Origin: Thermodesulfobacteriota bacterium
GTDB taxonomy: Bacteria > Desulfobacterota_D > UBA1144 > Nemesobacterales > JAJCZQ01
Direction of reading: 5' to 3'
Assembly (NCBI GenBank): GCA_965215275.1
Contig: OZ244044.1
Span: forward strand, 1,504,001 to 1,568,000
Length of the DNA stretch: 64,000 nucleotides
Shown here: one piece after another, positions 1,400 through 60,439 of the stretch
How the letters are laid out: each line of letters starts with the position of its first letter
How positions within the stretch are numbered: the stretch's first letter is position 1
The notes under the pieces: model-generated
The model's database searches: none
What the model was told of the DNA's origin: nothing
Seen by the model: only the letters and a program-made list of their open reading frames with translations
Made by a program: the position numbers and the translations under genes

Positions 1400-1411
1400 C
1401 CCCCCCCCCCC
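1400..1411 (+). repeat. poly-C tract 1 (C12) in the leader frame of paralog 1
   Basis: 12 consecutive C inside an ORF starting at ATG 1349 (MKDFIRGSNVKTRSSIPPPPP) that stops at TAG 1463. Confidence 0.9.
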
Positions 1412-1473
1412 GTGTATACCTTGCCTTTCAGTAGGGTACGGGTACACTGTAACGACAATGCTTAGGTTCATAT

Positions 1474-1484
1474 CCCCCCCCCCC
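1474..1484 (+). repeat. poly-C tract 2 (C11) just upstream of the signal-peptide codons of paralog 1
   Basis: ATG 1458 frame stops at TAA 1488; C10 or C13 would fuse it to YKLVLSLVFFLLCVIPAAA and the main ORF. Confidence 0.9.
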
Positions 1485-1542
1485 ATATAAGTTAGTTCTT
1501 TCCCTGGTCTTTTTTCTTCTGTGCGTAATACCCGCAGCCGCG

Positions 1543-3933
1543 ATGGTCCGTAACGGGGAAACGGCGTCGGTGTCCGTTGACGACCGGGGACAGGAGGACG
1601 GACCTTTTCTTCAGGAGGCTTCGGCTTCGTGGGAAGAAGGAGTGGAAGCAGGAATAAGAGAAGGGTTTTATGGAAAAGGAACGTTTTACGTCCGGGGAGC
1701 AGGGGACGGACATGAAAAAGGAGATCAGGCTAATTTTTCTGAATATTCCAATTACTACGGAGTAACTGCCGTTTGTTCAACGGACGGTTTTGGAAAAAAG
1801 AGTTTCTTTTCAGAAGAGGGAGTAAACCTGTGGGTGTGTGCACCTGGTTCTGATATCGTGACCACAGATAACAACAACGGTTACGTTGTAACTTCCGGAA
1901 CGTTCCTGTCAGCTTCACAGGTTGCAGGAGTGGCAGCACTGCTGAGAGAGGTTAACGGAGAACTGAGCTGGAGGGATATAAAGCTTATACTTGCGGGTTC
2001 AGCACGGCAGAACGATTTTTTTGACCCTGGCTGGGAGACTGGAGCTGTTAAATACGGTTCTGACGTGGAAAGATATAATTATAGTCCCAGGTATGGTTTT
2101 GGCGTGGTGGACGCAGAAGCAGCCGCAGAACTTGCAAAAAGCTGGAAAGGCGTAGGAGAAATGAGGACCATTACAGCTTCTTCAGATAATGAACTGACGA
2201 TCCCTGATGGAGAAGAAAATGGAGATGGAGAAGCGGACGGGGTCCTTGTCTCCGGACTTGTGATACCGGACGTGGAGGAAATATTTACGGAATTCGTTGA
2301 AGTTGAACTTGTTTTTTCTCATGACCGCTTGCAGGACCTTGATATACAGATAACCTCTCCTTCCGGGACAGTATCGGAACTTGTAAGGGAGTTTTCAGGG
2401 GAAGAAGACACCAGCGTCAGTTACCTGAGAAGAACACATCGTTTCGGGTCGGCAAGACACCTTGGGGAAGCCCCTTCCGGAGAATGGATTTTAAAAATAT
2501 CTGATACTGCTTCCGGAGATGGAGAAGATAGAGAAAATACGGGGACCTTGCACTCCTGGAACATTAAGGTATACGGGCACGGGAAGGGGGATCTTTTAAC
2601 GGACCCAGTCAGTGAGACGGGTCCTAAACATCATTATCTAAGTTTTGGTGGTCTGACAGAAGAAGATCATGTATTTACAGTAGGAGTTATGATAAGTCCA
2701 TTTCGTCCACCTCAGGTAGTTGATTCAGGGGCTGGAGCAGTAAGATACAGTTTAACTCCTGCTTTACCTGCCGGATTGATGTTTAATGTTGTTACCCTAC
2801 AGGTAACAGGAACGCCAACTACTCCGATGTCTGATACTGAGTACACATATACTGCTATGGACAGAGGTGGGGATAGTGATAGTATAACGTTCAATATCAG
2901 GGTAAAGGGTATAGCTGGTGCTCCGAGTTTTGGGAATGAGTCAATCCCTGGTCAGATATACATTCAAGGGACAACGGCAAACCTTCCGGTAACACTGCCT
3001 TCTGCAACATCAGGGGATACTCCGTTAACTTACAGTATAGCACCTGAGTTACCAGCTGGATTGGACTTTGCTTCTGATACCCGAGTAATAAGTGGCACAC
3101 CTTCTACTGCAACGTCTGAGGCTGATTACACATATACGGTTACTGATATAGATGGAGACACTGTTGAGTTAATGTTCGGGATCACTATATTAGCAGACGT
3201 AATGCCAACCTTTAGCGGTGAGACAATAGATGATAAGGAGTACATAGCAGGGAGTCTAATAACACCAGTAACGCTGCCTGCAGCAACTGGAGGTAATACT
3301 CCATTAACTTACAGTTTAACTCCTGCTTTACCAACTGGATTGAACTTTAACACAGCTACCCGAGTAATAAGTGGAACACCCACTACTGCAATGAGCAGGA
3401 ATACTTATACATATACGGTAACAGACATAAATGGAGATACTGTTAAGTTAATGTTCGGGATCACTATATTAGCTGACAGCATGCCAGACTTCGGCGGTGA
3501 GACAATAGATGATAAGGAGTACATAGCAGGGAGTCTAATAACACCAGTAACGCTGCCTGCAGCAACTGGAGGTAATGCTCCATTAACTTACAGTTTAACT
3601 CCTGCTTTACCAACTGGATTGAACTTTAATCCTGATACCCGAGTGATAAGTGGCACACCTTCTACTGCAACGTCTGAGGCTGATTACACATATACGGTTA
3701 CTGATATAGATGGAGACACGGATGAGAGAACGTTCAGTATAATAATAGAGGTTTCTTCTGCTCCGCCACCACAAGGACCAAGAACGTCAGGTACTGATTC
3801 AGGTGGAGGAGGATGTGCCGTCTCCGGTCAGAGCGGCGTTGTTCCTGATCTGCTCGGAGCAGTGGCGTGTCTGATACTTATACCCGTGTCTGTAATTATC
3901 AGAAGGAATAGAATAGCTCAGATAAAGACTTAG
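1543..3933 (+). CDS. Surface protein paralog 1: N-truncated inactive S8 (kexin-like) domain, P-domain, 4 Ig-like (He_PIG-type) repeats, GGGC-TM-basic C-terminal sorting tail; true start probably upstream and frameshifted at poly-C
   Basis: LSWRDIKLIL and YGFGVVDA kexin motifs; P-domain (LDIQITSPSGT, GEWILKI, GTLHSW); repeats of LPxGLxFxxxTRVISGTPT; in-frame signal-like stretch at 1486-1542. Confidence 0.85.
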   Translation: MVRNGETASVSVDDRGQEDGPFLQEASASWEEGVEAGIREGFYGKGTFYVRGAGDGHEKGDQANFSEYSNYYGVTAVCSTDGFGKKSFFSEEGVNLWVCAPGSDIVTTDNNNGYVVTSGTFLSASQVAGVAALLREVNGELSWRDIKLILAGSARQNDFFDPGWETGAVKYGSDVERYNYSPRYGFGVVDAEAAAELAKSWKGVGEMRTITASSDNELTIPDGEENGDGEADGVLVSGLVIPDVEEIFTEFVEVELVFSHDRLQDLDIQITSPSGTVSELVREFSGEEDTSVSYLRRTHRFGSARHLGEAPSGEWILKISDTASGDGEDRENTGTLHSWNIKVYGHGKGDLLTDPVSETGPKHHYLSFGGLTEEDHVFTVGVMISPFRPPQVVDSGAGAVRYSLTPALPAGLMFNVVTLQVTGTPTTPMSDTEYTYTAMDRGGDSDSITFNIRVKGIAGAPSFGNESIPGQIYIQGTTANLPVTLPSATSGDTPLTYSIAPELPAGLDFASDTRVISGTPSTATSEADYTYTVTDIDGDTVELMFGITILADVMPTFSGETIDDKEYIAGSLITPVTLPAATGGNTPLTYSLTPALPTGLNFNTATRVISGTPTTAMSRNTYTYTVTDINGDTVKLMFGITILADSMPDFGGETIDDKEYIAGSLITPVTLPAATGGNAPLTYSLTPALPTGLNFNPDTRVISGTPSTATSEADYTYTVTDIDGDTDERTFSIIIEVSSAPPPQGPRTSGTDSGGGGCAVSGQSGVVPDLLGAVACLILIPVSVIIRRNRIAQIKT
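3074..3718 (+). repeat. Near-identical intragenic repeats with 279-bp (93-aa) period
   Basis: Block at 3217 recurs at 3496 (+279); block at 3074 recurs at 3632 (+558). Confidence 0.85.
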
Positions 3934-12254: not shown

Positions 12255-12857
12255 TTATTTTAGTTCTAGAAACCTACTTATAGCTCTGTCAAAAACATTT
12301 TTTATATCTCTATATGTCCATACAGTTACCATATCAGCATGTTCTGCTGTAGTAGTCCATTTTCTATGTGTTGGATTTTCACGTGTCGGAACAGGAGTAA
12401 GAGTCTTGCCTCTGCGTGGATTATCTATATAATCCTTTATATCTTTTTTTGTCTTTAGTGATAATTGAATAGTAGTAGGTGTAATTCCTAAAAAGATTAT
12501 AAAAGCATAATTATAATTTACTGGTATCCAATTAAATTGATATTTTCGTTTACTATCTAATGAAGCAAGTTTAACTTCTACCCTCTCTGGTGAAGTATTA
12601 TCTTTAAGAGTAACAAGTAAATCTGTATTATTACCGCCTCTTTGTCTTTGTCTACCTACAAATTTATTAACATAACCAAATTTAGACAGCCAATCACTTA
12701 CGATCTTCTCTCCAAAATCTCCTTTTTTAGGATTAGTAATCCGTTGTATATCACCATATGTTCGGTTTTCCCAAACTTGAACTATGCTATCAGATTCCGC
12801 TACTTCTTTTAAAATTTTTATAACATCATTTTGTATTTCTTTATCAAGAAATAACAT
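12255..12857 (-). CDS. Putative type II restriction endonuclease, PD-(D/E)XK fold
   Basis: KGDFGE...TDLLV...EVKLA motif pattern; directly downstream of an MTase. Confidence 0.7.
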   Translation of the reverse strand: MLFLDKEIQNDVIKILKEVAESDSIVQVWENRTYGDIQRITNPKKGDFGEKIVSDWLSKFGYVNKFVGRQRQRGGNNTDLLVTLKDNTSPERVEVKLASLDSKRKYQFNWIPVNYNYAFIIFLGITPTTIQLSLKTKKDIKDYIDNPRRGKTLTPVPTRENPTHRKWTTTAEHADMVTVWTYRDIKNVFDRAISRFLELK

Positions 12858-12865
12858 GTGAGTAT

Positions 12866-14011
12866 TTAATCCATAAATCCAACTTTAATCAACTCATCAT
12901 AAATAATATCTTTTCTTAAACTTCTACTGTTATTTGTAGATGTATGAACTACACTTGCCCAATCATGATTTTTGATAAACTTAAAAACACTTTTCTTTTT
13001 TCTTTTTATTACAATACCATAACCGTCATTGTAAGGTATATCGTAAAAATCCGTTGTGGCTACAGCGGTTTCTCTAGCCCAGAAAGTTCTGGGTAAATAT
13101 ATATCACACTTACCTATCATATTCATACGAGATGGAAAACGAGAAGGTTTGTATGGAATACAGATGTTATAAATATCTACATAAGTCCTACAAGACTTTT
13201 CATTTACAGGTTTATATGAAGAAGGAGTAGATTTTGCCCAAACTTGAAATACGGTTTTAACATTAATTTCTTCTCCATTAGGAAAAATAAAAGGATTATC
13301 GTTAAGTGTTTCTGTATGTAATAATATATATCCCATTTTTATCAATCTGTTTTTGCACGAACCTTTGCCAGTACTATCAAATATTGGAGGAAGTATAAAA
13401 GCTACATAGTCAGCAAATTCAAAAGATTTGACTACAAAATCCAAAGCGATCTTACCGTTTCTGCCAAAAGGAGGATTACCTATAACCACATATTTACCAG
13501 CAGGAGGTTGCCAAGTTAAAAAATCAGCTTGGATAATACCATCAATTAACTTATCAGTAAGTGGGGACTTTTTAGGTTGTATTTCAATCCCTAACCGATT
13601 ATTTTCGGGTAATAGAGAATAAAAATGACCACAACCTGCACTAGGCTCTACAAATGTATAATCTGAAATATCTATATTATATTTATCTAATGTTTTGTAA
13701 AATCTATTTATACAACTTTTAGCTACATCTGGCATTGTGTAGTATTGGTCAGCTTGTTTAATTCCAAGATTATACTCTCCATTTAAATTCAATATCCTTA
13801 ATAGATCGTTTCTATAAAAATCAGGAACTTGTTTTATTCTATCCCATCTGTCCACTGTTCCTTTATGAACAAGTAATAAATCGGCAATTTCTCTATTGCT
13901 TTTACTTTTTTGTAAATGAGCAAAAAGAGATAGTTCATCCATATTACTTGTTTGATATTCATCAAATATACTATCTGGAGTTGTATAAAATATTTCTTCT
14001 AAAGGTAACAT
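12866..14011 (-). CDS. Amino (N6-adenine-type) DNA methyltransferase, gamma motif order, with N-terminal HTH-like segment
   Basis: DQYYT, FVEPSAGCG (motif I), VIGNPPFG (motif IV); SNREIADLLLVHKGTVDRW HTH-like. Confidence 0.85.
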   Translation of the reverse strand: MLPLEEIFYTTPDSIFDEYQTSNMDELSLFAHLQKSKSNREIADLLLVHKGTVDRWDRIKQVPDFYRNDLLRILNLNGEYNLGIKQADQYYTMPDVAKSCINRFYKTLDKYNIDISDYTFVEPSAGCGHFYSLLPENNRLGIEIQPKKSPLTDKLIDGIIQADFLTWQPPAGKYVVIGNPPFGRNGKIALDFVVKSFEFADYVAFILPPIFDSTGKGSCKNRLIKMGYILLHTETLNDNPFIFPNGEEINVKTVFQVWAKSTPSSYKPVNEKSCRTYVDIYNICIPYKPSRFPSRMNMIGKCDIYLPRTFWARETAVATTDFYDIPYNDGYGIVIKRKKKSVFKFIKNHDWASVVHTSTNNSRSLRKDIIYDELIKVGFMD

Positions 14012-14012
14012 T

Positions 14013-14993
14013 TTAACCTATTAACTCCTTATATTTTAATCTTTTACCTTCCAATCTTTTACCTTCCAATCTTTTACCTTCCAATCTTTTAATAACCTTT
14101 TTAATCTGATCCATAGTAGGTAAAGGTCTGTTATTATGCCTTCCAGCATATTCATCTACATAGCGTTGTAGATGTTTCCTGCTCATGAAGTGGTATATCC
14201 CAGTATACCCTCTTTTAAGCATAGACCAGAAACTTTCCATCCCGTTGGTATGTGCCTGTTCCCTGATATATTCACCTACTCCATGATTAACTGTCTTGTG
14301 TTTATACCCTTTCTTGTTCAGTCCACTATACCCTCTGTTCTCGTCTGTATAAATAGTTGATTCAGCATCTACAGTTTTATCTATCAAACCTTCTAATGTT
14401 TTACTATCTACAACTTCAGTTACCTTTGCTTTTACCTTCTTATCTATCCTTGATTTAATACCTACTACTGCAGATTTAGTTTTAGTGCTTCTGCCTTGAG
14501 TCCCTTTAGTTCTATTGGATTGGTGCTTGTTCCTTTCAAGTCCACCAACATAGGTCTCATCAACTTCTACAGGAGATAACAACGGATTATCTGACTGCTC
14601 ATCAAACGATTCTCGTATCCTGTGACCCAAGAACCATGCTGTCTTCTGCGTTACCTCTACATCACTTGAAAGTTTTAAACTTGAAATTCCTTTAAGATTG
14701 GTATTCAGCAAGTAAATAGCCATTAGCCATTTATGAAGTGATATCTTGCTTTTGGCTAATACTGTGTTTGTTCTCACGCTGAAATACTTACGGCAATCTC
14801 TGCATCTGTAAGGCATCGTAGGATGTTTTATTTCTATTGTATTAAAACTTCCACAGTGAGAGCAGTATCTATCCTTACCATCTTTACCCCACTTCTGCTC
14901 CTCAAAACACTTTCTTGCTAATCCCTCATCTGGAAACATTTTAAAAAACTCATACAAACTAACTTTATCTTGTTTCGTTCTTTTTCTCATCAT
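14013..14993 (-). CDS. IS1595-family DDE transposase
   Basis: CSHC/CRDC zinc ribbon, HTH (QKTAWFLGHRIR), VEVDETYVGG, IYTDE, HTNGMESFWSMLKRG, HLQRYVDE. Confidence 0.95.
   Translation of the reverse strand: MMRKRTKQDKVSLYEFFKMFPDEGLARKCFEEQKWGKDGKDRYCSHCGSFNTIEIKHPTMPYRCRDCRKYFSVRTNTVLAKSKISLHKWLMAIYLLNTNLKGISSLKLSSDVEVTQKTAWFLGHRIRESFDEQSDNPLLSPVEVDETYVGGLERNKHQSNRTKGTQGRSTKTKSAVVGIKSRIDKKVKAKVTEVVDSKTLEGLIDKTVDAESTIYTDENRGYSGLNKKGYKHKTVNHGVGEYIREQAHTNGMESFWSMLKRGYTGIYHFMSRKHLQRYVDEYAGRHNNRPLPTMDQIKKVIKRLEGKRLEGKRLEGKRLKYKELIG
14038..14091. repeat. 15-bp tandem repeat (~3.6 copies) encoding KRLEG x3 at the transposase C-terminus
   Basis: AATCTTTTACCTTCC three times plus partial AATCTTTTA. 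Confidence 0.9.
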
Positions 14994-29569: not shown

Positions 29570-29598
29570 TTGACATTACATCAGAACGGAAGTAAAAT
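29570..29598 (+). promoter_or_regulatory. sigma70-type promoter of paralog 2
   Basis: TTGACA, 17-nt spacer, TAAAAT; ATG 29605 is 7 nt after the -10 box. Confidence 0.7.
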
Positions 29599-29604
29599 AT
29601 AAAA

Positions 29605-32600
29605 ATGTATGAAAAACATGATGGACTCTATCCCCCCCCCCCCCGTCAATATAGTAGTTTAACGGGCAGTTCCCGCCGGAACGGCAGGAACCTTGTACTT
29701 TCCCTTGTCCTTTTTCTTCTGTGCATAATGATCACTGTTGCAGAGGGACAGGACAGCGTAAATGATCCGTTCTCCGAATGCAGGGTTATCAGTGCAGACG
29801 CGGAAGATCCGCTGTACGGATGTCAGTGGCATCTGAAGAACACGGGGCAGCTTGGTTTTTCCGGAAAAGCAGTAACAGCAGGAGAAGATATAAACGTAGA
29901 GGGAGTGTGGAACGAAGACGTATATGGTTCTGGAATTAACGTAGCAATAGTAAGTGACGGTATTGACCTTTCACATGAGGACCTTTCTGCTAAGGTCCGT
30001 TCCGGACTGAACTGGAGTTATTTTGAAAGAAATAATTCTGAAGAGAACAGTTCTGAAAAATATAATTCAGAAAGAGATGATCATTCAGACGGTTCATCCT
30101 TTACCGGAACACGAGCGGCAGGAGTAATTGCAGCAACTGGATATAACGGACTGGGAGTAAGAGGAACAGCACCTGGTGCGAGTATATACAGTTACAGGTT
30201 ATCCGGTGATCTCAGTGAAGCTGACGCAATGGTCCGTAATAAAGAAATAACCGCTGTATCGGTTAACGGCCGGGTATCTGAGGACGGAGCTTTTTTTCAG
30301 GAGGCTTCATCTGTCTGGGAAGAAGGATTGGATACGGGAATAAGGGAAGGGTTTTATGGGAAAGGTGTGTTTTACGTCTGGGGAGCAGGGGACGGTCACG
30401 AGAATAACGATCAGGCTAATTTTAATGAATATTCCAGCTATTACGGAGTAACAGCCGTTTGTTCAACGGACGGCTTTGGAAAGAAGAGTATATTTTCAGA
30501 AGAGGGAGTAAATCTCTGGGTATGTGCACCTGGTTCTGATATTGTGACCACAGATAACAACAACGATTACGTTGTAACATCCGGAACTGTCCTTTCAGCT
30601 TCACAGGTTGGAGGAGTGGCTGCACTGCTGAGAGAGGTTAATGGAAATCTGAGCTGGAGGGATATAAAGCTTATACTTGCGGGTTCAGCAAGGCAGAACG
30701 ACGTTTCTGACATGAGCTGGGAGACTGGAGCGGTTAAATACGGTTCTGACGTGGAAAGATATAATTATAATCCTAAGTATGGTTTTGGCGTGGTAGACGC
30801 AGAAGCAGCCGCAGAGCTTGCCGGAAGCTGGAAAGGCATCGGAGAGATGAGGACCATTACAGCTTCTTCCGATAATGAACTGACAATTCCTGATGGAGAA
30901 GGAGAAGCAGATGGAATACTTACCTCCACACTTGTGATACCGGACGTGGAGGAAATATTTACGGAATTCGTTGAGGTAGAACTTGTTTTTTCTCATGACC
31001 GCTTGCAGGACCTTGATATAAAAATAACCTCTCCTTCCGGGACAGTTTCTGAACTTGTCCGGGAATTTTCAGGTGAGGAAGAAGACGCTGAGATCAGTTA
31101 TGTAAGAAGAACACATCGTTTCGGGTCGGCTAAACACCTCGGAGAAGACCCTTCCGGTGAATGGACCCTTGATATATCCGATACTGCTTCCGGAGATGAA
31201 GCAGATGAAGAAAATACTTTTACCTTACACTCCTGGAGCATTAAGGTATACGGGAATTTTTATCAAGGACCTGGCAGGGAGATAACTACTAAAGCTTTAA
31301 ATTGGGGCGGACAGACAGTTCAGGATCAGGTGTACAGAGTAGGAACTCAGATAGCACCGTTACAGCTGCCTGAGGCGACCGGGGCAGAAGGAATAACGTA
31401 CAGTATGACACCTGATTTACCTGCTGGGCTGGAGTTTAACGATACCACCCGGGTTATAAGCGGAACCCCAACTAAATCGCAGTCTAATGAACGTTATCAA
31501 ATTGTTGCCAGAGACGAAAATGGAAACGTGAAGGGTTTAGCGTTCCATATAAGGGTAAGGTTCCGTAACTCCACAATACCGAGTTTCAGCGATACCATCC
31601 CGGATCAGAACTACGTAACGGGGAGAGAAATAACGCCACTGGTGTTCCCTAGTGCAACGGGAGGGGATGGTCAGTTAAGGTACACTTTTAACGGCACTTT
31701 AACTAACTTACCAAATGGATTGAGACTTACCAGTGATCCGTTCAGGATAAGAGGAACACCAGGTAGTGGTAGTGCGGGGACAAGTACCTGGCAATATACC
31801 GCTACTGACTCAGACGGGGATACTGCTACACTTGAGTTCAGGATAAGGATAAAAGCTGCAGCTGACGTTCCGAGCTTCGGCGGTCAGATGATAGATGATA
31901 AGTTTTATACGGCAATGGTTCAAATATCACCATTCACGCTACCTCTTGCAACGCAAGGAACTGGAATTACACTCAGGTTAACCCCTAATTTACCTGATGG
32001 ATTGAATTTTAACTTTGTCACCCAAGTGATAAGCGGAACACCAACTGCTGCGATGCCTAAGACTGATTATACATGGAGAGCAACGGACAGAGACGGATAT
32101 ACGGCTGAATTGACGTTCAGTATAACGATAACGGCCCTGTCCTTTGACGGGCAGGTACCTTCTTCTCCTGTTTTGTACTTGGCGGAGAGACCAGTAACAC
32201 CGTTAACACTGCCTGCTGCAACGGGAGGTACTGCTCCGTATACTTACGTTCTGACCCCTGAATTACCTGATGGACTGGACTTTAACGATACCACCAGAGT
32301 TATAAGCGGGACACCGACTGCTGCAACGCCCGTGAATACCTATACGTATACCGTTACAGACGCAGACGGAACTGAGACGGAGGTGACGTTCGATATTGCC
32401 GTAGCAGCACACTTTTCAGGCGTTGAGATAGAAAGCAGGTTTTACACGGTCGGTACGGCGGTAACGGAAACGCTGCCCGAGGCAATCGGACATAACGGAA
32501 CGGTAACGTACAGTTTAACTCCTGCCCCTCCTGCTGAATTGACCTTTACCCCTGCCACCCGGGTTATAAGCGGAACACCGACTGCTATACAGAAGAATGC

Positions 32601-33426
32601 GAGGCTTTATACGTATAGTGCTGCTACCGGTGCAGGTGTACCTGCTCGAACGTTGGTGTTCCATATCACGGTAAGAGATGAACCGGACACAAGGCCGAGT
32701 TTCGGCGGTGAGACGGTAGAAGATAAGGAATACATAATATCGGGAAGTCCGATAACCCCGTTCGTGCTGCCTGAGGCAACGGGAGGGAATGGAACGGTAA
32801 CATACAGTCTGACTCCTCGTTTACCAGACGGATTGATCTTTACGCCTGTTGATCGAGAGACAAGCGGGACACTGACTGCTGCGATGTCTGAGACCGATTA
32901 TACGTGGAGTGCCACGGACGAGGATAACGACAGGGCTGGGTTAACGTTCAGTATAACGGTGGAAGAGGACAGCGAACCGGCATTCAGCGTGACGACGATA
33001 GAAGATCAGGTGTACACGGGGGAAAGAATAAGGCTGCCGGTAGCAACGGGAGGGAACCCGCCGTTAAGATACAGTATAGATCCTCGTTTACCGACGGGAA
33101 TGAGATTGAACGAAGACACAGGGGTCATAAGCGGGACGCCCGCGAGTGCGTCACCTGCAACTTCTTACACGTACACGGTAACGGACAGGAATGGAGACAT
33201 GAAAGGGTTGACTTTCAGGCTCAGTGCAGAGGTTTCTTCTACTCCAGGACCAACAACAGGAAGACCAGGAACGTCAGGTAGTGATTCAGGCGGAGGTGGA
33301 GGAGGATGTGCCGTCTCAGATCAGAGCAGCACTGCTTCTGATATTCCCGGAGTAATTGCATGTCTGATACTTATTCCTGTATCAGTAGTGATAAAAAGGA
33401 AGAGAAGATCTCAGATAAAGACTTAG
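29605..33426 (+). CDS. Surface protein paralog 2: signal peptide, inactive S8 kexin-like domain, P-domain, 7 Ig-like repeats, GGGC-TM-basic tail
   Basis: DPLYGCQWHL, VAIVSDGID, TGTRAAG, GTVLSAS, YGFGVVDA; repeats with ISGTPT; GGGGGGCAVS...CLILIPVSVVIKRKRR. Confidence 0.9.
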   Translation: MYEKHDGLYPPPPRQYSSLTGSSRRNGRNLVLSLVLFLLCIMITVAEGQDSVNDPFSECRVISADAEDPLYGCQWHLKNTGQLGFSGKAVTAGEDINVEGVWNEDVYGSGINVAIVSDGIDLSHEDLSAKVRSGLNWSYFERNNSEENSSEKYNSERDDHSDGSSFTGTRAAGVIAATGYNGLGVRGTAPGASIYSYRLSGDLSEADAMVRNKEITAVSVNGRVSEDGAFFQEASSVWEEGLDTGIREGFYGKGVFYVWGAGDGHENNDQANFNEYSSYYGVTAVCSTDGFGKKSIFSEEGVNLWVCAPGSDIVTTDNNNDYVVTSGTVLSASQVGGVAALLREVNGNLSWRDIKLILAGSARQNDVSDMSWETGAVKYGSDVERYNYNPKYGFGVVDAEAAAELAGSWKGIGEMRTITASSDNELTIPDGEGEADGILTSTLVIPDVEEIFTEFVEVELVFSHDRLQDLDIKITSPSGTVSELVREFSGEEEDAEISYVRRTHRFGSAKHLGEDPSGEWTLDISDTASGDEADEENTFTLHSWSIKVYGNFYQGPGREITTKALNWGGQTVQDQVYRVGTQIAPLQLPEATGAEGITYSMTPDLPAGLEFNDTTRVISGTPTKSQSNERYQIVARDENGNVKGLAFHIRVRFRNSTIPSFSDTIPDQNYVTGREITPLVFPSATGGDGQLRYTFNGTLTNLPNGLRLTSDPFRIRGTPGSGSAGTSTWQYTATDSDGDTATLEFRIRIKAAADVPSFGGQMIDDKFYTAMVQISPFTLPLATQGTGITLRLTPNLPDGLNFNFVTQVISGTPTAAMPKTDYTWRATDRDGYTAELTFSITITALSFDGQVPSSPVLYLAERPVTPLTLPAATGGTAPYTYVLTPELPDGLDFNDTTRVISGTPTAATPVNTYTYTVTDADGTETEVTFDIAVAAHFSGVEIESRFYTVGTAVTETLPEAIGHNGTVTYSLTPAPPAELTFTPATRVISGTPTAIQKNARLYTYSAATGAGVPARTLVFHITVRDEPDTRPSFGGETVEDKEYIISGSPITPFVLPEATGGNGTVTYSLTPRLPDGLIFTPVDRETSGTLTAAMSETDYTWSATDEDNDRAGLTFSITVEEDSEPAFSVTTIEDQVYTGERIRLPVATGGNPPLRYSIDPRLPTGMRLNEDTGVISGTPASASPATSYTYTVTDRNGDMKGLTFRLSAEVSSTPGPTTGRPGTSGSDSGGGGGGCAVSDQSSTASDIPGVIACLILIPVSVVIKRKRRSQIKT
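29632..29644 (+). repeat. poly-C tract (C13) at the 5' end of paralog 2
   Basis: 13 consecutive C; in frame from ATG 29605, out of frame from ATG 29609. Confidence 0.9.
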
Positions 33427-33820: not shown

Positions 33821-34309
33821 CTATCTCGGATAAATTATAGTTCCCTTAGATTTAGCCCATCTTTCAGTAAACCCTACATGTGATATATCATTACTACTTC
33901 TATCCAGTTGTCTTTCTGTTTCTTTAACTACTATTTCTGGTTCTAATTCATATATTACTTTTACTCTTGTCTGATCATATTCATAAAAAATAGCTAAATA
34001 TATTTTACTATTTCTCCTTATACGATTTAGAGATTCCTGTCTTTTATCAGGAGGAGATTTAAACATCCTGTCTAACTGACCCGTGCCACCTTCCTTACAA
34101 GACAAATATTCATAAACTATATTATGATCTTTAAAATCTCTGGCATCTGCATCTCTTTTACTGTGTATAAGTTCATGTCCCAATAAATCAGCTATTATCA
34201 TCTCTTTAACTAATCCAGGTTGTAGTAAATTATATATACCCATTGATTTGGCAAGATCAGCTGCTTTTAACACTAAATCTATTATCCTGCGATAGATGTT
34301 AGATGCCAT
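33821..34309 (-). CDS. PvuII-like type II restriction endonuclease
   Basis: Size and motifs DLAKSMGIYNLLQ, DARD..YEYLS, IYELEP, KGTIIY parallel R.PvuII as recalled (DLALKHGINDIFQ, DAVD..YELKS, IYRLEP, HGTKIY); overlaps the MTase 3' end. Confidence 0.72.
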   Translation of the reverse strand: MASNIYRRIIDLVLKAADLAKSMGIYNLLQPGLVKEMIIADLLGHELIHSKRDADARDFKDHNIVYEYLSCKEGGTGQLDRMFKSPPDKRQESLNRIRRNSKIYLAIFYEYDQTRVKVIYELEPEIVVKETERQLDRSSNDISHVGFTERWAKSKGTIIYPR

Positions 34310-35088
34310 TCTATCTCCTCTTTATATTCTGAATTTATTCTGGATCTAGATAAATCAATATATCTATCATTAATTTCAAAAGCTATAAAATCCCTTTTGT
34401 AATTTTCACATACTACAGCTGTAGTTCCTACACCTGAAAATGGATCAAGCACAACATCACCTTCATTAGAACTTGCAAGAACTAATCTTTCTATTAACTT
34501 CTCTGGCTTTTGTATGGTATTAAGAAGTTCTCTTGATATTAACTCTTTTGATTTATAGGTTAATTGTTTAACATCTCCCCATACATCACCTGGATTCTTG
34601 CCTTTAGTATTAAACTTAGTTTTATTAAATTTTCCATTAGTTACAGAGGGAACATTTTCACATCTTTGTCTATGTGTTAGTTCTACTAACTGTGGAACTC
34701 TGATATCATCTAAATTAAAACATTTTGCTTGTTTACCTTTAACAAAGTAATAGATAATATCGTAATTGTTTGTGTATTTTAGTTTACCTTGAGATAACCT
34801 GCTTGGCTGGTACCATATTATTTTAGATTTACAGTTTAAATATTTTCTATAATCTACAAAATCCAAACAATCAGGTTTACCGAACAAATATAAAGTTCCG
34901 CCTGTTTTTAATTTAGGTTCAAATTTCTTTAACAGATTAAGATTAAACTTTTGAATACTTGGAATACGGTCCCAATCATTATCAGTAACTCCGTAAGGAC
35001 CATCACATATAATTAAGTCAATAGATTTATCGTCTACTTTCTTGATTAAATCTAACGCATCCCCACAGTAAAATTCGTTTAATTTCAT
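34282..35088 (-). CDS. Beta-class N4-cytosine/N6-adenine DNA methyltransferase
   Basis: IDLIICDGPY (motif IV variant), GKNPGDVW, QKPEKLIERLV, VLDPFSGVGTT (motif I). Confidence 0.92.
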   Translation of the reverse strand: MKLNEFYCGDALDLIKKVDDKSIDLIICDGPYGVTDNDWDRIPSIQKFNLNLLKKFEPKLKTGGTLYLFGKPDCLDFVDYRKYLNCKSKIIWYQPSRLSQGKLKYTNNYDIIYYFVKGKQAKCFNLDDIRVPQLVELTHRQRCENVPSVTNGKFNKTKFNTKGKNPGDVWGDVKQLTYKSKELISRELLNTIQKPEKLIERLVLASSNEGDVVLDPFSGVGTTAVVCENYKRDFIAFEINDRYIDLSRSRINSEYKEEIEWHLTSIAG

Positions 35089-35090
35089 TT

Positions 35091-36029
35091 CTAACTGATC
35101 AATTCTTTGTATTTAAGATGCTTACCTGACAAACCTTTAATAACTTTTTCGATCTGATTCATAGTATGTAAAGGACGGATGTTATGCCTGCCCGCATACT
35201 CATCTACATAGCGTTGTAGATGTTTCCTGCTCATGTAGTGGTATATCCCAGTATGTCCTCTTTTCAGCATAGACCAGAAACTTTCCATCCCGTTGGTATG
35301 TGCCTGTTCCTTGATATATTCACCTACTCCGTGATTAACTGTCTTGTGTTTATACCCTTTTTTATTCAGTCCACTATATCCTAAATTCTCATCTGTATAG
35401 ATCGTTGATCCGTCTTGAACTGTTTCCTTAATCATATTTTGCAGTTCATCCTTCTTAACGGTTTCTGTTACTTTTGCTTTAACCTTCTTATCTACTCTTG
35501 ACTTAATACCTACTACGGCAGATTTAGTTTTAGTACTTCTGCCCTGTGTTCCCTTCACTTTTTTACTGGCATGCTTGTTTCTCTCAAGTCCGCCAACATA
35601 AGTCTCATCCATCTCTATTGGTGACATTAAAGGATTATCTGATTGCTCGTCAAATACCTTCCTTATTCGGTGTCCTAAATACCAGGCTGTCGTTTGAGTA
35701 ACTCCTATATCTCTTGCCAACTTATGACTGGATACTCCCTTTAAGTTGGTAGTCATCAAATATATAGCTAATAACCATTGATGCAAAGATAAATTACTAC
35801 CTTCAAATACAGTGCCTGTTCTGACACTAAATCGTTTATCACAATCTTTACACCTATAAGGCATGGTAGCATGTTTAGCTTTAGAAGTTCTTACACTTCC
35901 ACAACGAGGGCAACATTTATACTCATTATCTTCACCCCAGAGCATCTTCTCAATATGTTTTCTTGCTGATTCCTCGTCTGGAAACATTTTATTAAAATCA
36001 TATAAACTAACTTTTTTTCTATGTGCCAT
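35091..36029 (-). CDS. IS1595-family DDE transposase
   Basis: CPRC/CKDC zinc ribbon, IEMDETYVGG, IYTDE, HTNGMESFWSMLKRG. Confidence 0.95.
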   Translation of the reverse strand: MAHRKKVSLYDFNKMFPDEESARKHIEKMLWGEDNEYKCCPRCGSVRTSKAKHATMPYRCKDCDKRFSVRTGTVFEGSNLSLHQWLLAIYLMTTNLKGVSSHKLARDIGVTQTTAWYLGHRIRKVFDEQSDNPLMSPIEMDETYVGGLERNKHASKKVKGTQGRSTKTKSAVVGIKSRVDKKVKAKVTETVKKDELQNMIKETVQDGSTIYTDENLGYSGLNKKGYKHKTVNHGVGEYIKEQAHTNGMESFWSMLKRGHTGIYHYMSRKHLQRYVDEYAGRHNIRPLHTMNQIEKVIKGLSGKHLKYKELIS

Positions 36030-57097: not shown

Positions 57098-57127
57098 TTG
57101 ACATTCGTTCATAATACTTGGTAAAAT
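57098..57127 (+). promoter_or_regulatory. sigma70-type promoter of paralog 3
   Basis: TTGACA, 18-nt spacer, TAAAAT with extended TGn. Confidence 0.65.
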
Positions 57128-57173
57128 ATCAATGTTATGAAAAATCCAAACATAAAAACACGTAGTTCCATTA

Positions 57174-57182
57174 CCCCCCCCC
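57174..57182 (+). repeat. poly-C tract 1 (C9) of paralog 3
   Basis: ORF from ATG 57137 (MKNPNIKTRSSITPP) stops at TAA 57221; C10 would open the conserved inter-tract frame. Confidence 0.9.
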
Positions 57183-57243
57183 ATGTATACCTGACCTTTC
57201 AGCCTGGTATAAGTATTCTGTAAGAAAAATGTTTAAGATAATA

Positions 57244-57252
57244 CCCCCCCCC
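57244..57252 (+). repeat. poly-C tract 2 (C9) of paralog 3
   Basis: Frame through ATG 57229 stops at TAA 57256; C8 or C11 would fuse it to SKSLLTLVLFLLFIISMAA and the main ORF. Confidence 0.9.
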
Positions 57253-57301
57253 ATCTAAGTCATTACTAACTTTAGTCTTATTTCTTCTGTTTATAATTTC
57301 T

Positions 57302-60300
57302 ATGGCTGCAAAAGGACAGAGCAGCTTAGAAGAAACATTATCTGAATGCAGAGGAATGAGTTCAGACACGGAAGATCCGTTATACGGATGTCAGTGGCAT
57401 CTGAAGAACACGGGGCAGTTAAGTATTTCCGGAAAGAGAATAACAGCAGGAGAAGATATAAACATAGAGGGAGTGTGGAACGAAGACGTATACGGTACCG
57501 GAATTAACGTAGCAATAGTAAGTGACGGTATCGACCTTTCTCACGAGGACCTTTCTGATAAGGTCCGTTCCGGACCGAACTATGATCTTTCTGACAGTTC
57601 ATCCTTTACCGGAACACGAGCGGCAGGTGTAATAGCAGCAACTGGATATAACGGACTGGGAGTAAGAGGAACAGCACCTGGTGCGAGTATATACAGTTAC
57701 GGGTTAACTGGTGATCTCAGGGAAGCGGACGCAAAAGATGCAATGGTCCGTAATAAGGAAATAACTGCTGTATCGGTTAACGGCCGGGGATCTGAGGAGG
57801 GAGCTTTTTTTCAGGAGGCTTCAACTTCCTGGGAAGAAGGAGTGGAACTTGGTATAAGTAAAGGGTTTTATGGTAAAGGTGTGTTTTACGTCCGGGGAGC
57901 AGGGGACGGGCATGAGAATAACGATCAGGCTAATTTTTCTGAATATTCTAATTACTACGGCGTAACTGCCGTGTGTTCAACAGACGGCTTTGGAAAGAAG
58001 AGTATATTTTCAGAAGAGGGAGTAAATCTATGGGTATGTGCACCTGGTTCTGATATTGTAACTACAGATAACAACAACGATTACGTTGTAACTTCCGGAA
58101 CATTTCTATCAGCTTCACAGGTTGCAGGAGTGGCAGCACTGCTGAGAGAGATAAACGGGCAGCTGAGCTGGAGGGATGTAAAGCTTATACTTGCGGGTTC
58201 AGCACGGCAGAACGATTTTTTTGACATGAGCTGGGAGACAGGAGCTGTTAAATACGGTTCTGATACGGAAAGATATAAATATAATCCTAAGTATGGTTTT
58301 GGCGTGGTAGACGCAGAAGCAGCCGCAGAACTTGCCAGAAGCTGGAAAGGCGTAGGTGAAATGAGGACCGTTACAGCTTCTTCAGATAATGAACTGACAA
58401 TCCCTGATGGAGAAGGAGAAGCAGACGGTGTCCTTGTCTCCAGACTTATGATACCGGACCTGGAAGAAACAACATTTACGGAGTTTGTAGAAGTAGAACT
58501 TGTTTTCTCGTGTGACTGCTTACAGGACCTTAATATACAGATAACCTCTCCTTCCGGGACAGTGTCTGAACTTGTGCGGGAGTTTGCCGGGGAGTCTGTA
58601 AGTGGATCTTCAAATGAAGAAGAAAACTGCGTCAGTTACCTGAGAAGAACACATCGTTTCGGGTCGGCTAAACACCTCGGAGAAGACCCTTCCGGAGAAT
58701 GGATCCTTAAGATCTCCGATACTGCTTCCGGAGATGAAGAAGATGGAAAAAACACTGTTACCTTACACTCATGGAGCGTTAAGGTGTATGGGAATTTTTA
58801 TCAGGGACATGGCAGTGAGACAGGTACTAAACATCATGAAATAACCTTTGGTGGTGCAACGATAGATAATCAAGTATATAAAGTAGGTAAAACAATAACA
58901 CCATTAGAGCTACCTAACGCAACAAGAACAGGAGGGGGTACTTTCAGTCTTGCATTGTCTCCTCGTTTATTACCTGCTGGATTGAGTCGTAACGGCAGAA
59001 CTATAAGTGGAACACCAACTGCACCGAAGCAAGAGACTACTTATAGATGGATTGCTTCTATAGGACATGATAATACTGAGATAAGGTTCAACATCACGGT
59101 AGAAGCTAACACAGAACCCACCTTCTCAGGAGCAACTGTCCCAGATCAGATATGGACGGAAGGGGTAAGGATACCAACGTTACGTCTTCCTAATGCAACA
59201 GGAGGTAACGGAACTTTAACATACTTTTTAAGTCCTTCGCAGCCAGTTGGTATAAACAGACAGGACAACAGGTTATCCGGAACACCTACGGAACCTAAAG
59301 GAAGAACTCGTCATACATGGACAGTCAGAGACGAAGATGGTGATGAAGATATTATTGAGTTCTATATTACTGTAAGAGATAAAGATGACGTACCGAGCTT
59401 CGGCAGTGAGACTGTAGAAGATCAGGTGTATGTTGTACGCTCAATAGCAGGTCTTCCAGTAACTCTGCCAGAGGCAACGGGAGGGAATGGAGCATTAACT
59501 TACATTTTACTTCCTTTTTTACCTCGTGGATTGAATTTTGATCCTGACACCCGAGTAATAAGTGGCACACCCACCCGTGCATCCCCTATTAGGAATATGA
59601 TACATACAGTATCAGACATAGATGGAAGTAGTGCTCAATTAGAGTTCAGGATAACAGTAGAACCAAACACGGAACCAACCTTCGGCAATGAAACTATAGA
59701 TAATAAGGTGTACATTAACGGCATTACAGCAGTAATGGAAACACTGCCTGAAGCAACGTCAGGGAATGCACCATTAACTTACAGTTTAACTAGTCTTGGG
59801 TTAATTGATCTTAATTTACCTCGTGGATTGAATTTTGATCCTGACACCCGAGTGTTAAGTGGAACACCCAACCTTGACGCACACGCACGAATACTTCCTG
59901 TAACTCGTACATATACATATAAAGTAACAGACAATGATGGAGATACAGCAGAGATAACGTTCAGTATAACAGTAGAAGAAGACAGCGAACCGGACTTCAG
60001 CGGTGTGACAATACCAGATCGTGTGTACACGGGGAGAACAATAGAGCTGCCAGAGGCAGCGGGAGGGAATGCACCGGTTACTTACAGTATAACACCTGGT
60101 CTGCCAGCTGGATTGATATTTAACGAAGTAACGCGGGAAATAAGTGGGACACCCAGGAGTGCATCATCTGCTGCTTCTTACACGTATACGGCAACAGACA
60201 GGAATGAAGATACGGATACATTGGATTTCATGCTCAGTGTAGAGGTTACTTCTACTCCAGGACCAACAACAGGAAGACCAGGAACGTCAGGTACTGATTC

Positions 60301-60439
60301 AGGCGGAGGTGGAGGAGGATGTGCCGTATCAGAGCAGAGCAGCGTTGCTTTTGATATTCTCGGAGTAATGACATGTCTGATACTTATACCTGTATCAGTA
60401 GCTATCAGAAGGAAGAGAAGAGCTCAGATAAAGACATAG
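57302..60439 (+). CDS. Surface protein paralog 3: inactive S8 kexin-like domain, P-domain, 5 Ig-like repeats, GGGC-TM-basic tail; signal peptide encoded upstream, beyond the poly-C frameshift
   Basis: Same motifs as paralog 2 (VAIVSDGID, TGTRAAG, GTFLSAS); in-frame hydrophobic stretch at 57254-57301 has no start codon. Confidence 0.88.
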   Translation: MAAKGQSSLEETLSECRGMSSDTEDPLYGCQWHLKNTGQLSISGKRITAGEDINIEGVWNEDVYGTGINVAIVSDGIDLSHEDLSDKVRSGPNYDLSDSSSFTGTRAAGVIAATGYNGLGVRGTAPGASIYSYGLTGDLREADAKDAMVRNKEITAVSVNGRGSEEGAFFQEASTSWEEGVELGISKGFYGKGVFYVRGAGDGHENNDQANFSEYSNYYGVTAVCSTDGFGKKSIFSEEGVNLWVCAPGSDIVTTDNNNDYVVTSGTFLSASQVAGVAALLREINGQLSWRDVKLILAGSARQNDFFDMSWETGAVKYGSDTERYKYNPKYGFGVVDAEAAAELARSWKGVGEMRTVTASSDNELTIPDGEGEADGVLVSRLMIPDLEETTFTEFVEVELVFSCDCLQDLNIQITSPSGTVSELVREFAGESVSGSSNEEENCVSYLRRTHRFGSAKHLGEDPSGEWILKISDTASGDEEDGKNTVTLHSWSVKVYGNFYQGHGSETGTKHHEITFGGATIDNQVYKVGKTITPLELPNATRTGGGTFSLALSPRLLPAGLSRNGRTISGTPTAPKQETTYRWIASIGHDNTEIRFNITVEANTEPTFSGATVPDQIWTEGVRIPTLRLPNATGGNGTLTYFLSPSQPVGINRQDNRLSGTPTEPKGRTRHTWTVRDEDGDEDIIEFYITVRDKDDVPSFGSETVEDQVYVVRSIAGLPVTLPEATGGNGALTYILLPFLPRGLNFDPDTRVISGTPTRASPIRNMIHTVSDIDGSSAQLEFRITVEPNTEPTFGNETIDNKVYINGITAVMETLPEATSGNAPLTYSLTSLGLIDLNLPRGLNFDPDTRVLSGTPNLDAHARILPVTRTYTYKVTDNDGDTAEITFSITVEEDSEPDFSGVTIPDRVYTGRTIELPEAAGGNAPVTYSITPGLPAGLIFNEVTREISGTPRSASSAASYTYTATDRNEDTDTLDFMLSVEVTSTPGPTTGRPGTSGTDSGGGGGGCAVSEQSSVAFDILGVMTCLILIPVSVAIRRKRRAQIKT

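Follow-up and report, generated by a model that had tools for sequence, protein, structure and literature searches.

A 64,000-nt window of the genome of a Thermodesulfobacteriota bacterium (contig OZ244044.1, positions 1,504,001 to 1,568,000) contains a gene at 29605-33426 (+), here called paralog 2, that encodes a kexin-like S8 protease domain without its catalytic residues. It belongs to a family of 57 loci in this genome, and we conclude, with a probability of roughly 0.58, that its product is a binding head in a likely phase-variable surface repertoire and not an enzyme. Coordinates are positions within the window, which is the whole stretch analyzed, unless they carry a genome label; G000 is the window's genome (1,990,023 bp, one contig, 99.87% complete). 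The original prediction, made from the window's letters, described three surface-protein paralogs with dead S8 domains. All three are real, but they are a small sample of the family, and the 57-copy scale found by the genome-wide count that it had proposed, the intact and half-dead classes, the poly-C runs and the recombination between copies go beyond it.

Paralog 2 is an open reading frame (ORF) of 1273 aa with its start codon in frame. It consists of a signal peptide, the dead kexin-like S8 domain, a P domain, a stalk of immunoglobulin (Ig)-like He_PIG repeats and a tail of Gly-Cys, transmembrane and basic segments; Pfam matches S8 at residues 108-366, P_proprotein at residues 454-547 and He_PIG in seven stretches. 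A comparison of the N-termini of the paralogs found no propeptide or PPC-like domain after its signal peptide. The features are listed below, where 'dead clade' refers to the 29 paralogs of G000 that share the fully altered active site.

29605..33426 (+): paralog 2
29570..29575 (+): TTGACA, a -35-like hexamer by consensus match only, shared by most family members
29632..29644 (+): C13 run between ATG and signal-peptide core, a candidate slipped-strand switch, in frame at present
29692..29739 (+): predicted signal peptide, hydrophobic core (hydropathy is highest at residues 27-31)
29806..30846 (+): kexin-like S8 domain, catalytic residues lost (PF00082 E 6.9e-24; furin E 3.7e-37; AlphaFold2 (AF2) and Foldseek)
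29953..29955 (+): Ser (AGT) at the catalytic Asp position, VAIVSDG; dead clade S28/G1 of 29 paralogs
30013..30102 (+): length-variable loop directly before the His helix, 30 aa in paralog 2, with a low predicted local distance difference test (pLDDT) score
30103..30105 (+): Thr (ACC) at the catalytic His position, FTGTR; dead clade S15/T14
30265..30276 (+): former substrate-binding strand N-S-W-G, now N-G-R-V, from the furin alignment and paralog comparison
30391..30393 (+): Asp (GAC) at the oxyanion Asn position, AGDG; dead clade 29/29
30589..30591 (+): Val (GTC) at the nucleophile Ser position, GTVLSAS; dead clade F21/V8
30847..31254 (+): proprotein-convertase P domain (PF01483 E 1.2e-15)
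31303..33222 (+): He_PIG Ig-like repeat stalk, seven Pfam stretches, repeat number variable among paralogs
33292..33423 (+): GGGGGC, transmembrane and basic tail, a CTERM-like sorting signal with 60 genome matches
1400..3933 (+): paralog 1 (ORF 1543-3933), lacking the N-terminal half of S8; the rest reads AGDG and GTFLSAS
57098..60439 (+): paralog 3 (ORF 57302-60439), an S-T-D-F dead domain reading VAIVSDG, FTGTR, AGDG and GTFLSAS

The codons at 29953, 30103, 30391 and 30589 read Ser, Thr, Asp and Val as originally claimed; paralog 3 has the same losses, and paralog 1 shares them in the half that it retains. Aligned to furin with phmmer, the four altered sites fall on the ildDg, Hgtr, sgNg and gtSasap motifs, the Asp, His, Asn and Ser motifs of the active enzyme. 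The Asn-to-Asp change alone would be insufficient proof of inactivity, because PC2 and the sedolisins use Asp at the oxyanion position. The quadruple replacement is not chance, because it occurs in 29 of 29 dead-clade members while 134 of 149 outside domains (138 new 50%-cluster representatives, of 150 listed) read D-H-N-S; the other 15 are scattered and of differing types. Sedolisins (S53) have a Glu-Asp-Ser triad with an Asp oxyanion residue; paralog 2 has the oxyanion Asp but lacks both the Ser nucleophile and a Glu in place of the His.

An AF2 model of the domain, built on a 45-sequence alignment, has a pLDDT of 83.8 and a predicted template modeling (pTM) score of 0.89, and Foldseek places it at a TM-score of 0.82-0.85 to furin and Kex2, which are the best Protein Data Bank matches by sequence and by structure. 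The kexin-like fold is thereby predicted to be kept even though the catalytic residues are lost. With S8 followed by a P domain (PF00082 and PF01483), paralog 2 is S8B by ancestry; with S/T/V at its triad positions, it is by residues not an active member.

A tblastn search of G000 gave 58 matches but 57 loci, since a G13 run divides one gene into two matches, and the frames holding the family, mostly 700-1500 codons long, cover 176 kb (8.9%) of the genome. At the Asp/His/oxyanion/Ser positions six loci read D-H-N-S, one D-H-D-S, one G-H-D-S, ten D-R-D-S, eight D/N-R-x-A (one gapped at His), one S-H-D-A and 29 S/G-S/T-D-F/V, with the truncated paralog 1 as the last. The Asp-His-Ser triad is kept in 7 of the 57 paralogs and at least one triad residue is lost in 50; paralog 2 lies in the dead clade, whose 29 members have each substituted all four of Asp, His, Asn and Ser. 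Assembly error does not explain the copies: in run X2, which may be the source sample, single-copy stretches have a depth of ~58 and family heads reach ~1660, which fits ~28 similar copies. The original prediction overstated their likeness: paralogs 2 and 3 share 87% of 462 aligned residues in their heads, and dead-clade heads are 76-100% identical (median 86%, 28 compared), which is similar and not near-identical. All ten D-R-D-S paralogs (examples are L039:562-2055 (-) and L046:722-2218 (+)) retain Asp and Ser. Arg occupies their His position, and the Asp is followed at once by a new His (VAVVDHGM), perhaps the catalytic His after migration, that could replace the lost one. A short remnant of the family lies at G000:C1 633539.

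Nei-Gojobori (NG86) dN/dS could be computed for 50 of the 58 matches (four broken or partial ones left out, four dropped by the end-motif pattern). The value for the dead clade is 0.28 (28 genes, 376 non-independent pairs, none >1), 0.39 in D-R-D-S, 0.41 in D-R-x-A and 0.40 in the intact class (five genes), where neutral decay would give ~1. By this measure the dead clade is under purifying selection. A recombination score modeled on the pairwise homoplasy index (PHI) was 0.32 against 0.467 +/- 0.007, with 0 of 2000 permutations as low (305 informative sites), and the closest paralog to paralog 2 shifts along the domain; therefore the similarity of the copies reflects purifying selection and gene conversion. 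With catalytic residues gone and both the predicted fold and purifying selection kept, paralog 2 is, as far as sequence can establish it, firmly a pseudoenzyme. The claim of a pseudoprotease on an Ig-like stalk accordingly holds, as does the warning that annotation would miscall it, given that Pfam scores paralog 2 as S8.

The 5' ends of the family carry long homopolymers. Runs of C or G of at least 8 nt number 139 in G000 against ~13 expected from base frequencies; there is no run of length 7 (no C7, no G7) and no G8 in 1.99 Mb, and the longest run is a C26 at 1401695. Of these runs, 78 sit at the 5' ends of 50 family loci as C8-C13 near the start codon, between the ATG and the signal-peptide core and often two in series. 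An upstream start is in frame in 11 of the 50 run-bearing loci, paralog 2 (C13) among them, and the other 39 have no in-frame upstream start within the scanned region; the in-frame fraction (11, tested against 49 loci) is not different from one third (p 0.13). The other two paralogs of the window show the out-of-frame state.

1400-1411 and 1474-1484 (+): C12 and C11 runs of paralog 1, upstream ATGs out of frame
57098 (+): TTGACA of paralog 3
57174-57182 and 57244-57252 (+): C9 runs of paralog 3, signal peptide not in frame with the upstream ATGs

Contigs of runs X1 and X2 (again possibly the source sample) show the same C13 length as paralog 2. None of the six canonical D-H-N-S paralogs has a C run, which may reflect one evolutionary event; a Fisher test of tract against triad state was not used because the paralogs are non-independent. 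Over-represented 5' coding homopolymers that set the frame (78 runs at 50 loci) are the sequence signature of contingency loci such as the Campylobacter poly-G genes, the Helicobacter outer membrane proteins and Neisseria opa, and make phase variation of the family likely. The family resembles these also in its mixed frame states and recombining paralogs; it differs in that the cargo is a dead kexin, the carrier is an uncultured likely symbiont, many genes have two serial runs, and the switching is a prediction. Loss of mismatch repair is ruled out as the cause of the runs, MutS and MutL both being present. A metagenome scan for strain comparison of the tracts found only four distant loci, at 39-43% identity.

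Export and anchoring of the product are suggested by its two ends. At its C-terminus paralog 2 carries GGGGGC, then a hydrophobic helix and a basic end; 60 sites in G000 match this tail, two of them in genes without S8. G000 encodes a single CPBP/Rce1-like (PF02517) protein (L036, G000:C1:680830-681114 (-)), just upstream of family member g680054. A Gly-rich, Cys, transmembrane and basic tail beside one CPBP-family protease in the genome resembles the arrangement of the MYXO-CTERM, JDVT-CTERM and Synerg-CTERM systems, and from it the tail of the family would be processed and its members displayed at the surface. At G000:C1 627284 and 1649106 (+), two family members lack an S8 domain yet have the C run, signal peptide, N-terminal domain(s) and tail.

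For a neighboring housekeeping gene, the best matches with source names come from Thermodesulfobacteriota (72%) and Candidatus Dadabacteria (62%), which makes Dadabacteria the likely lineage. No close homolog was found in 100 other genomes of the order; in one genus, 8 of 36 genomes have one distant kexin-like gene each, whose motifs read HGT and GTS. The nearest outside homologs are in metagenome-assembled genomes of Dehalococcoidia, a group common in sponges, at 38-44% identity over the full domain. Dead forms belonging to the same classes turn up in a few other assemblies (P0027, P0029, P0053, P0060, P0066), where they are 75-96% identical to paralogs of G000, and the expansion appears from these searches to be confined to this species or near kin.

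The main support for a binding role, which is indirect, comes from a congener of the same genus, G001 (80% complete, 190 contigs). In this partial assembly there is no S8 match and no match to the paralog 2 tail, but He_PIG has 41 matches. The G001 stalks are ~37-52% identical to the paralog 2 stalk, and the proteins open with a Cys motif that looks lipoprotein-like by eye and finish in leucine-rich repeats (LRRs; four proteins scanned). Four G001 loci have G9-G10 within a 16-17 bp spacer between -35/-10-like hexamers, a candidate promoter-spacing switch.

L079-L082, L084, L086, L089-L092: G001 family of lipoprotein-like He_PIG and LRR proteins, four with G9-G10 spacer runs

G000 has no LRR_8 match. 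With S8 heads in G000 and LRR heads in G001, the two genomes therefore carry different heads on related stalks, under different homopolymer switches.

The former cleft of the dead clade has been rebuilt. In 66 intact outside (D-H-N-S) domains the substrate strand has S in 66/66 and W in 65/66; in the dead clade these positions read G19/D10 and then R21/W4/L4, giving a polymorphic N-G/D-R/W/L-G, and the W before the oxyanion loop has become R21/W5/L3. The loop before the His helix is 9, 14, 20, 25 or 30 aa long in 26 of 28 dead-clade members measured and 15 aa in the four intact and five D-R-x-A paralogs measured. Tandem Repeats Finder reported no array over this loop, and the ~5-residue steps rest on protein lengths only.

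We propose that the signal peptide exports the protein and that the lone CPBP/Rce1-like intramembrane protease processes the Gly-Cys tail, which would lead to anchoring. Slippage in the C runs would switch each gene on or off, so that cells show differing subsets; gene conversion would reshuffle the heads, and repeat gain or loss would alter the reach of the stalk. The remodelled surface of the dead S8 and P head would bind host or matrix molecules, a job that the LRR heads would likely do in G001. The six run-free D-H-N-S paralogs would remain constitutive proteases. An adhesin-type role is the best mechanism on this sequence evidence but unproven, and host association is an inference of ours. 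As for origin, an ancestral active protease may have joined the stalk platform, lost its His once and then been amplified. More tentatively still, and at somewhat less than even odds, a kexin-like protease was captured on a lineage-wide Ig stalk, inactivated and multiplied into a repertoire of 50 recombining, homopolymer-switched members in which the old active-site face became a variable recognition surface, replacing the LRR heads of the congener.

Several observations weigh against the binding repertoire or against its parts. G001 is incomplete and an S8 family could be unassembled there. Unlike the MYXO, JDVT and Synerg systems, tail and protease both fall below all curated cut-offs: the tail is under all NCBIfam CTERM cut-offs (11.3 bits on Synerg-CTERM, where 22.5 are needed, and 11.5 on Heimdall-CTERM, where 24 are needed), and the Rce1-like protein has 65 of the 100 bits needed on Mrt_core and reaches no myxosortase cut-off. 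Length variants with an added C in X2, X6 and X7 contigs are inseparable from paralogs and were not used, near-orthologs from other assemblies show no clear opposite on/off state, and the genome has MutS and MutL. The dead heads are conserved with no pair above a dN/dS of 1, a pattern as compatible with a structural role as with binding, and the basal order of the losses is left open by a second tree from which catalytic columns and a mosaic gene were removed. The first tree, whose 73 rows omit paralog 1 and one fragment, nests the classes as successive losses, a simple stepwise story that the second tree makes tentative; the S-H-D-A gene g1389975 is ruled out as an intermediate because it is the mosaic. 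Holding the 47 His-less rows as one clade gave a log-likelihood 25.9 better than the free tree (p-AU 0.77, approximately unbiased test), so a single His loss is not rejected by the alignment; the finer order of losses is unproven.

A different reading is a passive variable shield, in which stable dead caps hide the envelope or serve as changing phage or predator targets without a specific ligand. Conserved heads under purifying selection, variable stalk length, a low-confidence variable loop and on/off runs would all suit it, but the clade-specific fixed cleft replacements and the LRR heads in the same slot of the congener suggest a binding job, and we consider a shield unlikely.

A substrate trap or a decoy for host protease inhibitors, acting through the old cleft, was offered in the original prediction beside the adhesin; the adhesin gains the indirect support of the congener's LRR heads on a related stalk, and the other two are disfavored for paralog 2. 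A kept (predicted) fold would serve them, and the eight D-R-x-A paralogs have only a small Ser-to-Ala change and keep the W-G strand; sponge symbionts, according to excerpts of 10.1101/527234, secrete serpins as well as S8 proteases. However, the dead clade has Val or Phe for the nucleophile in 29/29, and both its S-W-G strand and the W ahead of the oxyanion loop have given way to polymorphic residues. From subtilase chemistry, so bulky a residue and a rebuilt strand should make a poor substrate trap. In the scabies mite SMIPP-S, the conserved surface lies opposite the defunct site (excerpts of PMC4031079). Trap and decoy are on balance improbable.

Regulatory or chaperone partnership with the few active paralogs, like that of CspA/CspC with CspB in Clostridioides difficile (excerpts of PMC7200643; also PMC12880746), is very improbable. 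Active and dead paralogs do coexist, and neither class has a recognizable propeptide (no search for an ORF2-type external chaperone homolog was made). The intact paralogs have a ~110-aa N-terminal domain, with only weak PPC-like atlas leads (0.87-0.88), which is absent from the dead clade, and no propeptide-length segment stands in its place. But 50 dead against 7 triad-intact copies, dispersed round the chromosome and individually switchable, are unlike a stoichiometric regulator. Paralog 2 scores 19.5 bits against a cut-off of 675 on the CspC/CspA model NF040808 and has no prodomain.

Decaying pseudogenes, or a selfish expansion homogenized by gene conversion, would account for the 39 run loci without an in-frame upstream start and for at least six members with internal stops or frameshifts and one with a large deletion, but the dN/dS of 0.28, the long open frames, the concentration of frame loss at homopolymer runs and the recurrence of dead forms in other assemblies (P0027, P0029, P0053) leave this reading hardly any weight. 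The members broken away from the 5' switch are paralogs 373220, 430565, 518305, 669529, 1118649 and 1786625, one of them at an internal G13. Catalysis by other residues is just as far-fetched: it might apply to the sister D-R-D-S class (Asp and Ser in 10/10, with the VAVVDHGM His), but paralog 2 has Val at the nucleophile and Thr at the His position and no Glu-Asp-Ser sedolisin triad.

Each ingredient of the binding repertoire has a precedent. The kexin/furin S8B enzymes (furin, Kex2 and the Aeromonas sobria protease ASP) share its S8 and P architecture and predicted fold; the family here differs in its lost catalytic positions, remodelled substrate strand, Ig stalk, CTERM-like tail and 57 copies. 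ASP is, in excerpts of PMC5638518, a propeptide-deficient bacterial kexin-like enzyme. An expanded S8B family is known from Pneumocystis carinii, whose PRT1/kexin set has 39 copies, most of them with a predicted surface anchor, and coexists with an antigenic-variation system (excerpts of PMC4764891 and PMC6345417). Unlike the family here, PRT1 is fungal, GPI (glycosylphosphatidylinositol)-anchored and subtelomeric, and those excerpts describe proteases without triad loss or homopolymer switches. In C. difficile, CspC and CspA are subtilisin-like pseudoproteases with lost triad residues and a non-catalytic role (excerpts of PMC7200643), likewise bacterial S8 domains retained after triad loss. 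Unlike the family here, they are few in copy, soluble, keep their prodomain and act in germination signaling.

The SMIPP-S proteins have a chymotrypsin-type fold; they are animal and secreted, are not phase variable and lack a stalk, unlike the family here. They are dead serine proteases that bind complement components (excerpts of PMC4031079), and the likeness lies in a dead protease family turned to binding host proteins, which is only proposed for the family here. A literature search found no publication on this family (most subscription papers lay outside its coverage), nor one that reports these ingredients combined on such a scale in a bacterium.

The bacterial subtilase pseudoenzymes that came up in that search are low-copy regulators (CspC/CspA); here a family with triad residues missing in 50 of its 57 copies occupies ~9% of a small genome. 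Because a single genome contains the intact, half-dead and fully dead classes, the route from enzyme to binder becomes testable. The findings suggest uncultured, likely host-associated bacteria running pathogen-style variable coats and, if true, would provide a prokaryotic counterpart of SMIPP pseudoproteases and variant surface antigens with the stages of loss preserved in one genome. S8 counts in symbiont genomes that are read as protein feeding need a triad check, because Pfam scores the dead paralog 2 as S8; one such case may be a sponge archaeon whose 11 S8A genes are read as active proteases in excerpts of 10.1101/527234.

Other arrangements were seen in passing. Some outside proteins have tandem S8 domains, including intact and degenerate pairs (P0251, P0247-P0250, P0031-P0038, P0043, P0057); P0251 (3332 aa), with five degenerate S8 domains, is an independent pseudoprotease. 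Large surface-protein genes with 5'-end runs of C56 and C15 occur in another genome of the order (L095 = G005:C1:1039500-1047500; L093). A second repeated family in G000, resembling tetratricopeptide repeat (TPR) proteins by eye, has its runs inside the coding sequence.

G000:C1 19539, 20737, 31545, 1068992, 1899949, 1901573, 1914729, 1964984: TPR-like (by eye) family with C9-C11 runs

Two IS1595-family transposases lie in low-GC stretches of the window: one at 33821-36029 (-), which right after paralog 2 adjoins an N6/N4 DNA methylase and an ORF of no assigned function, and one at 12258-14993 (-), which adjoins two ORFs without a Pfam match.

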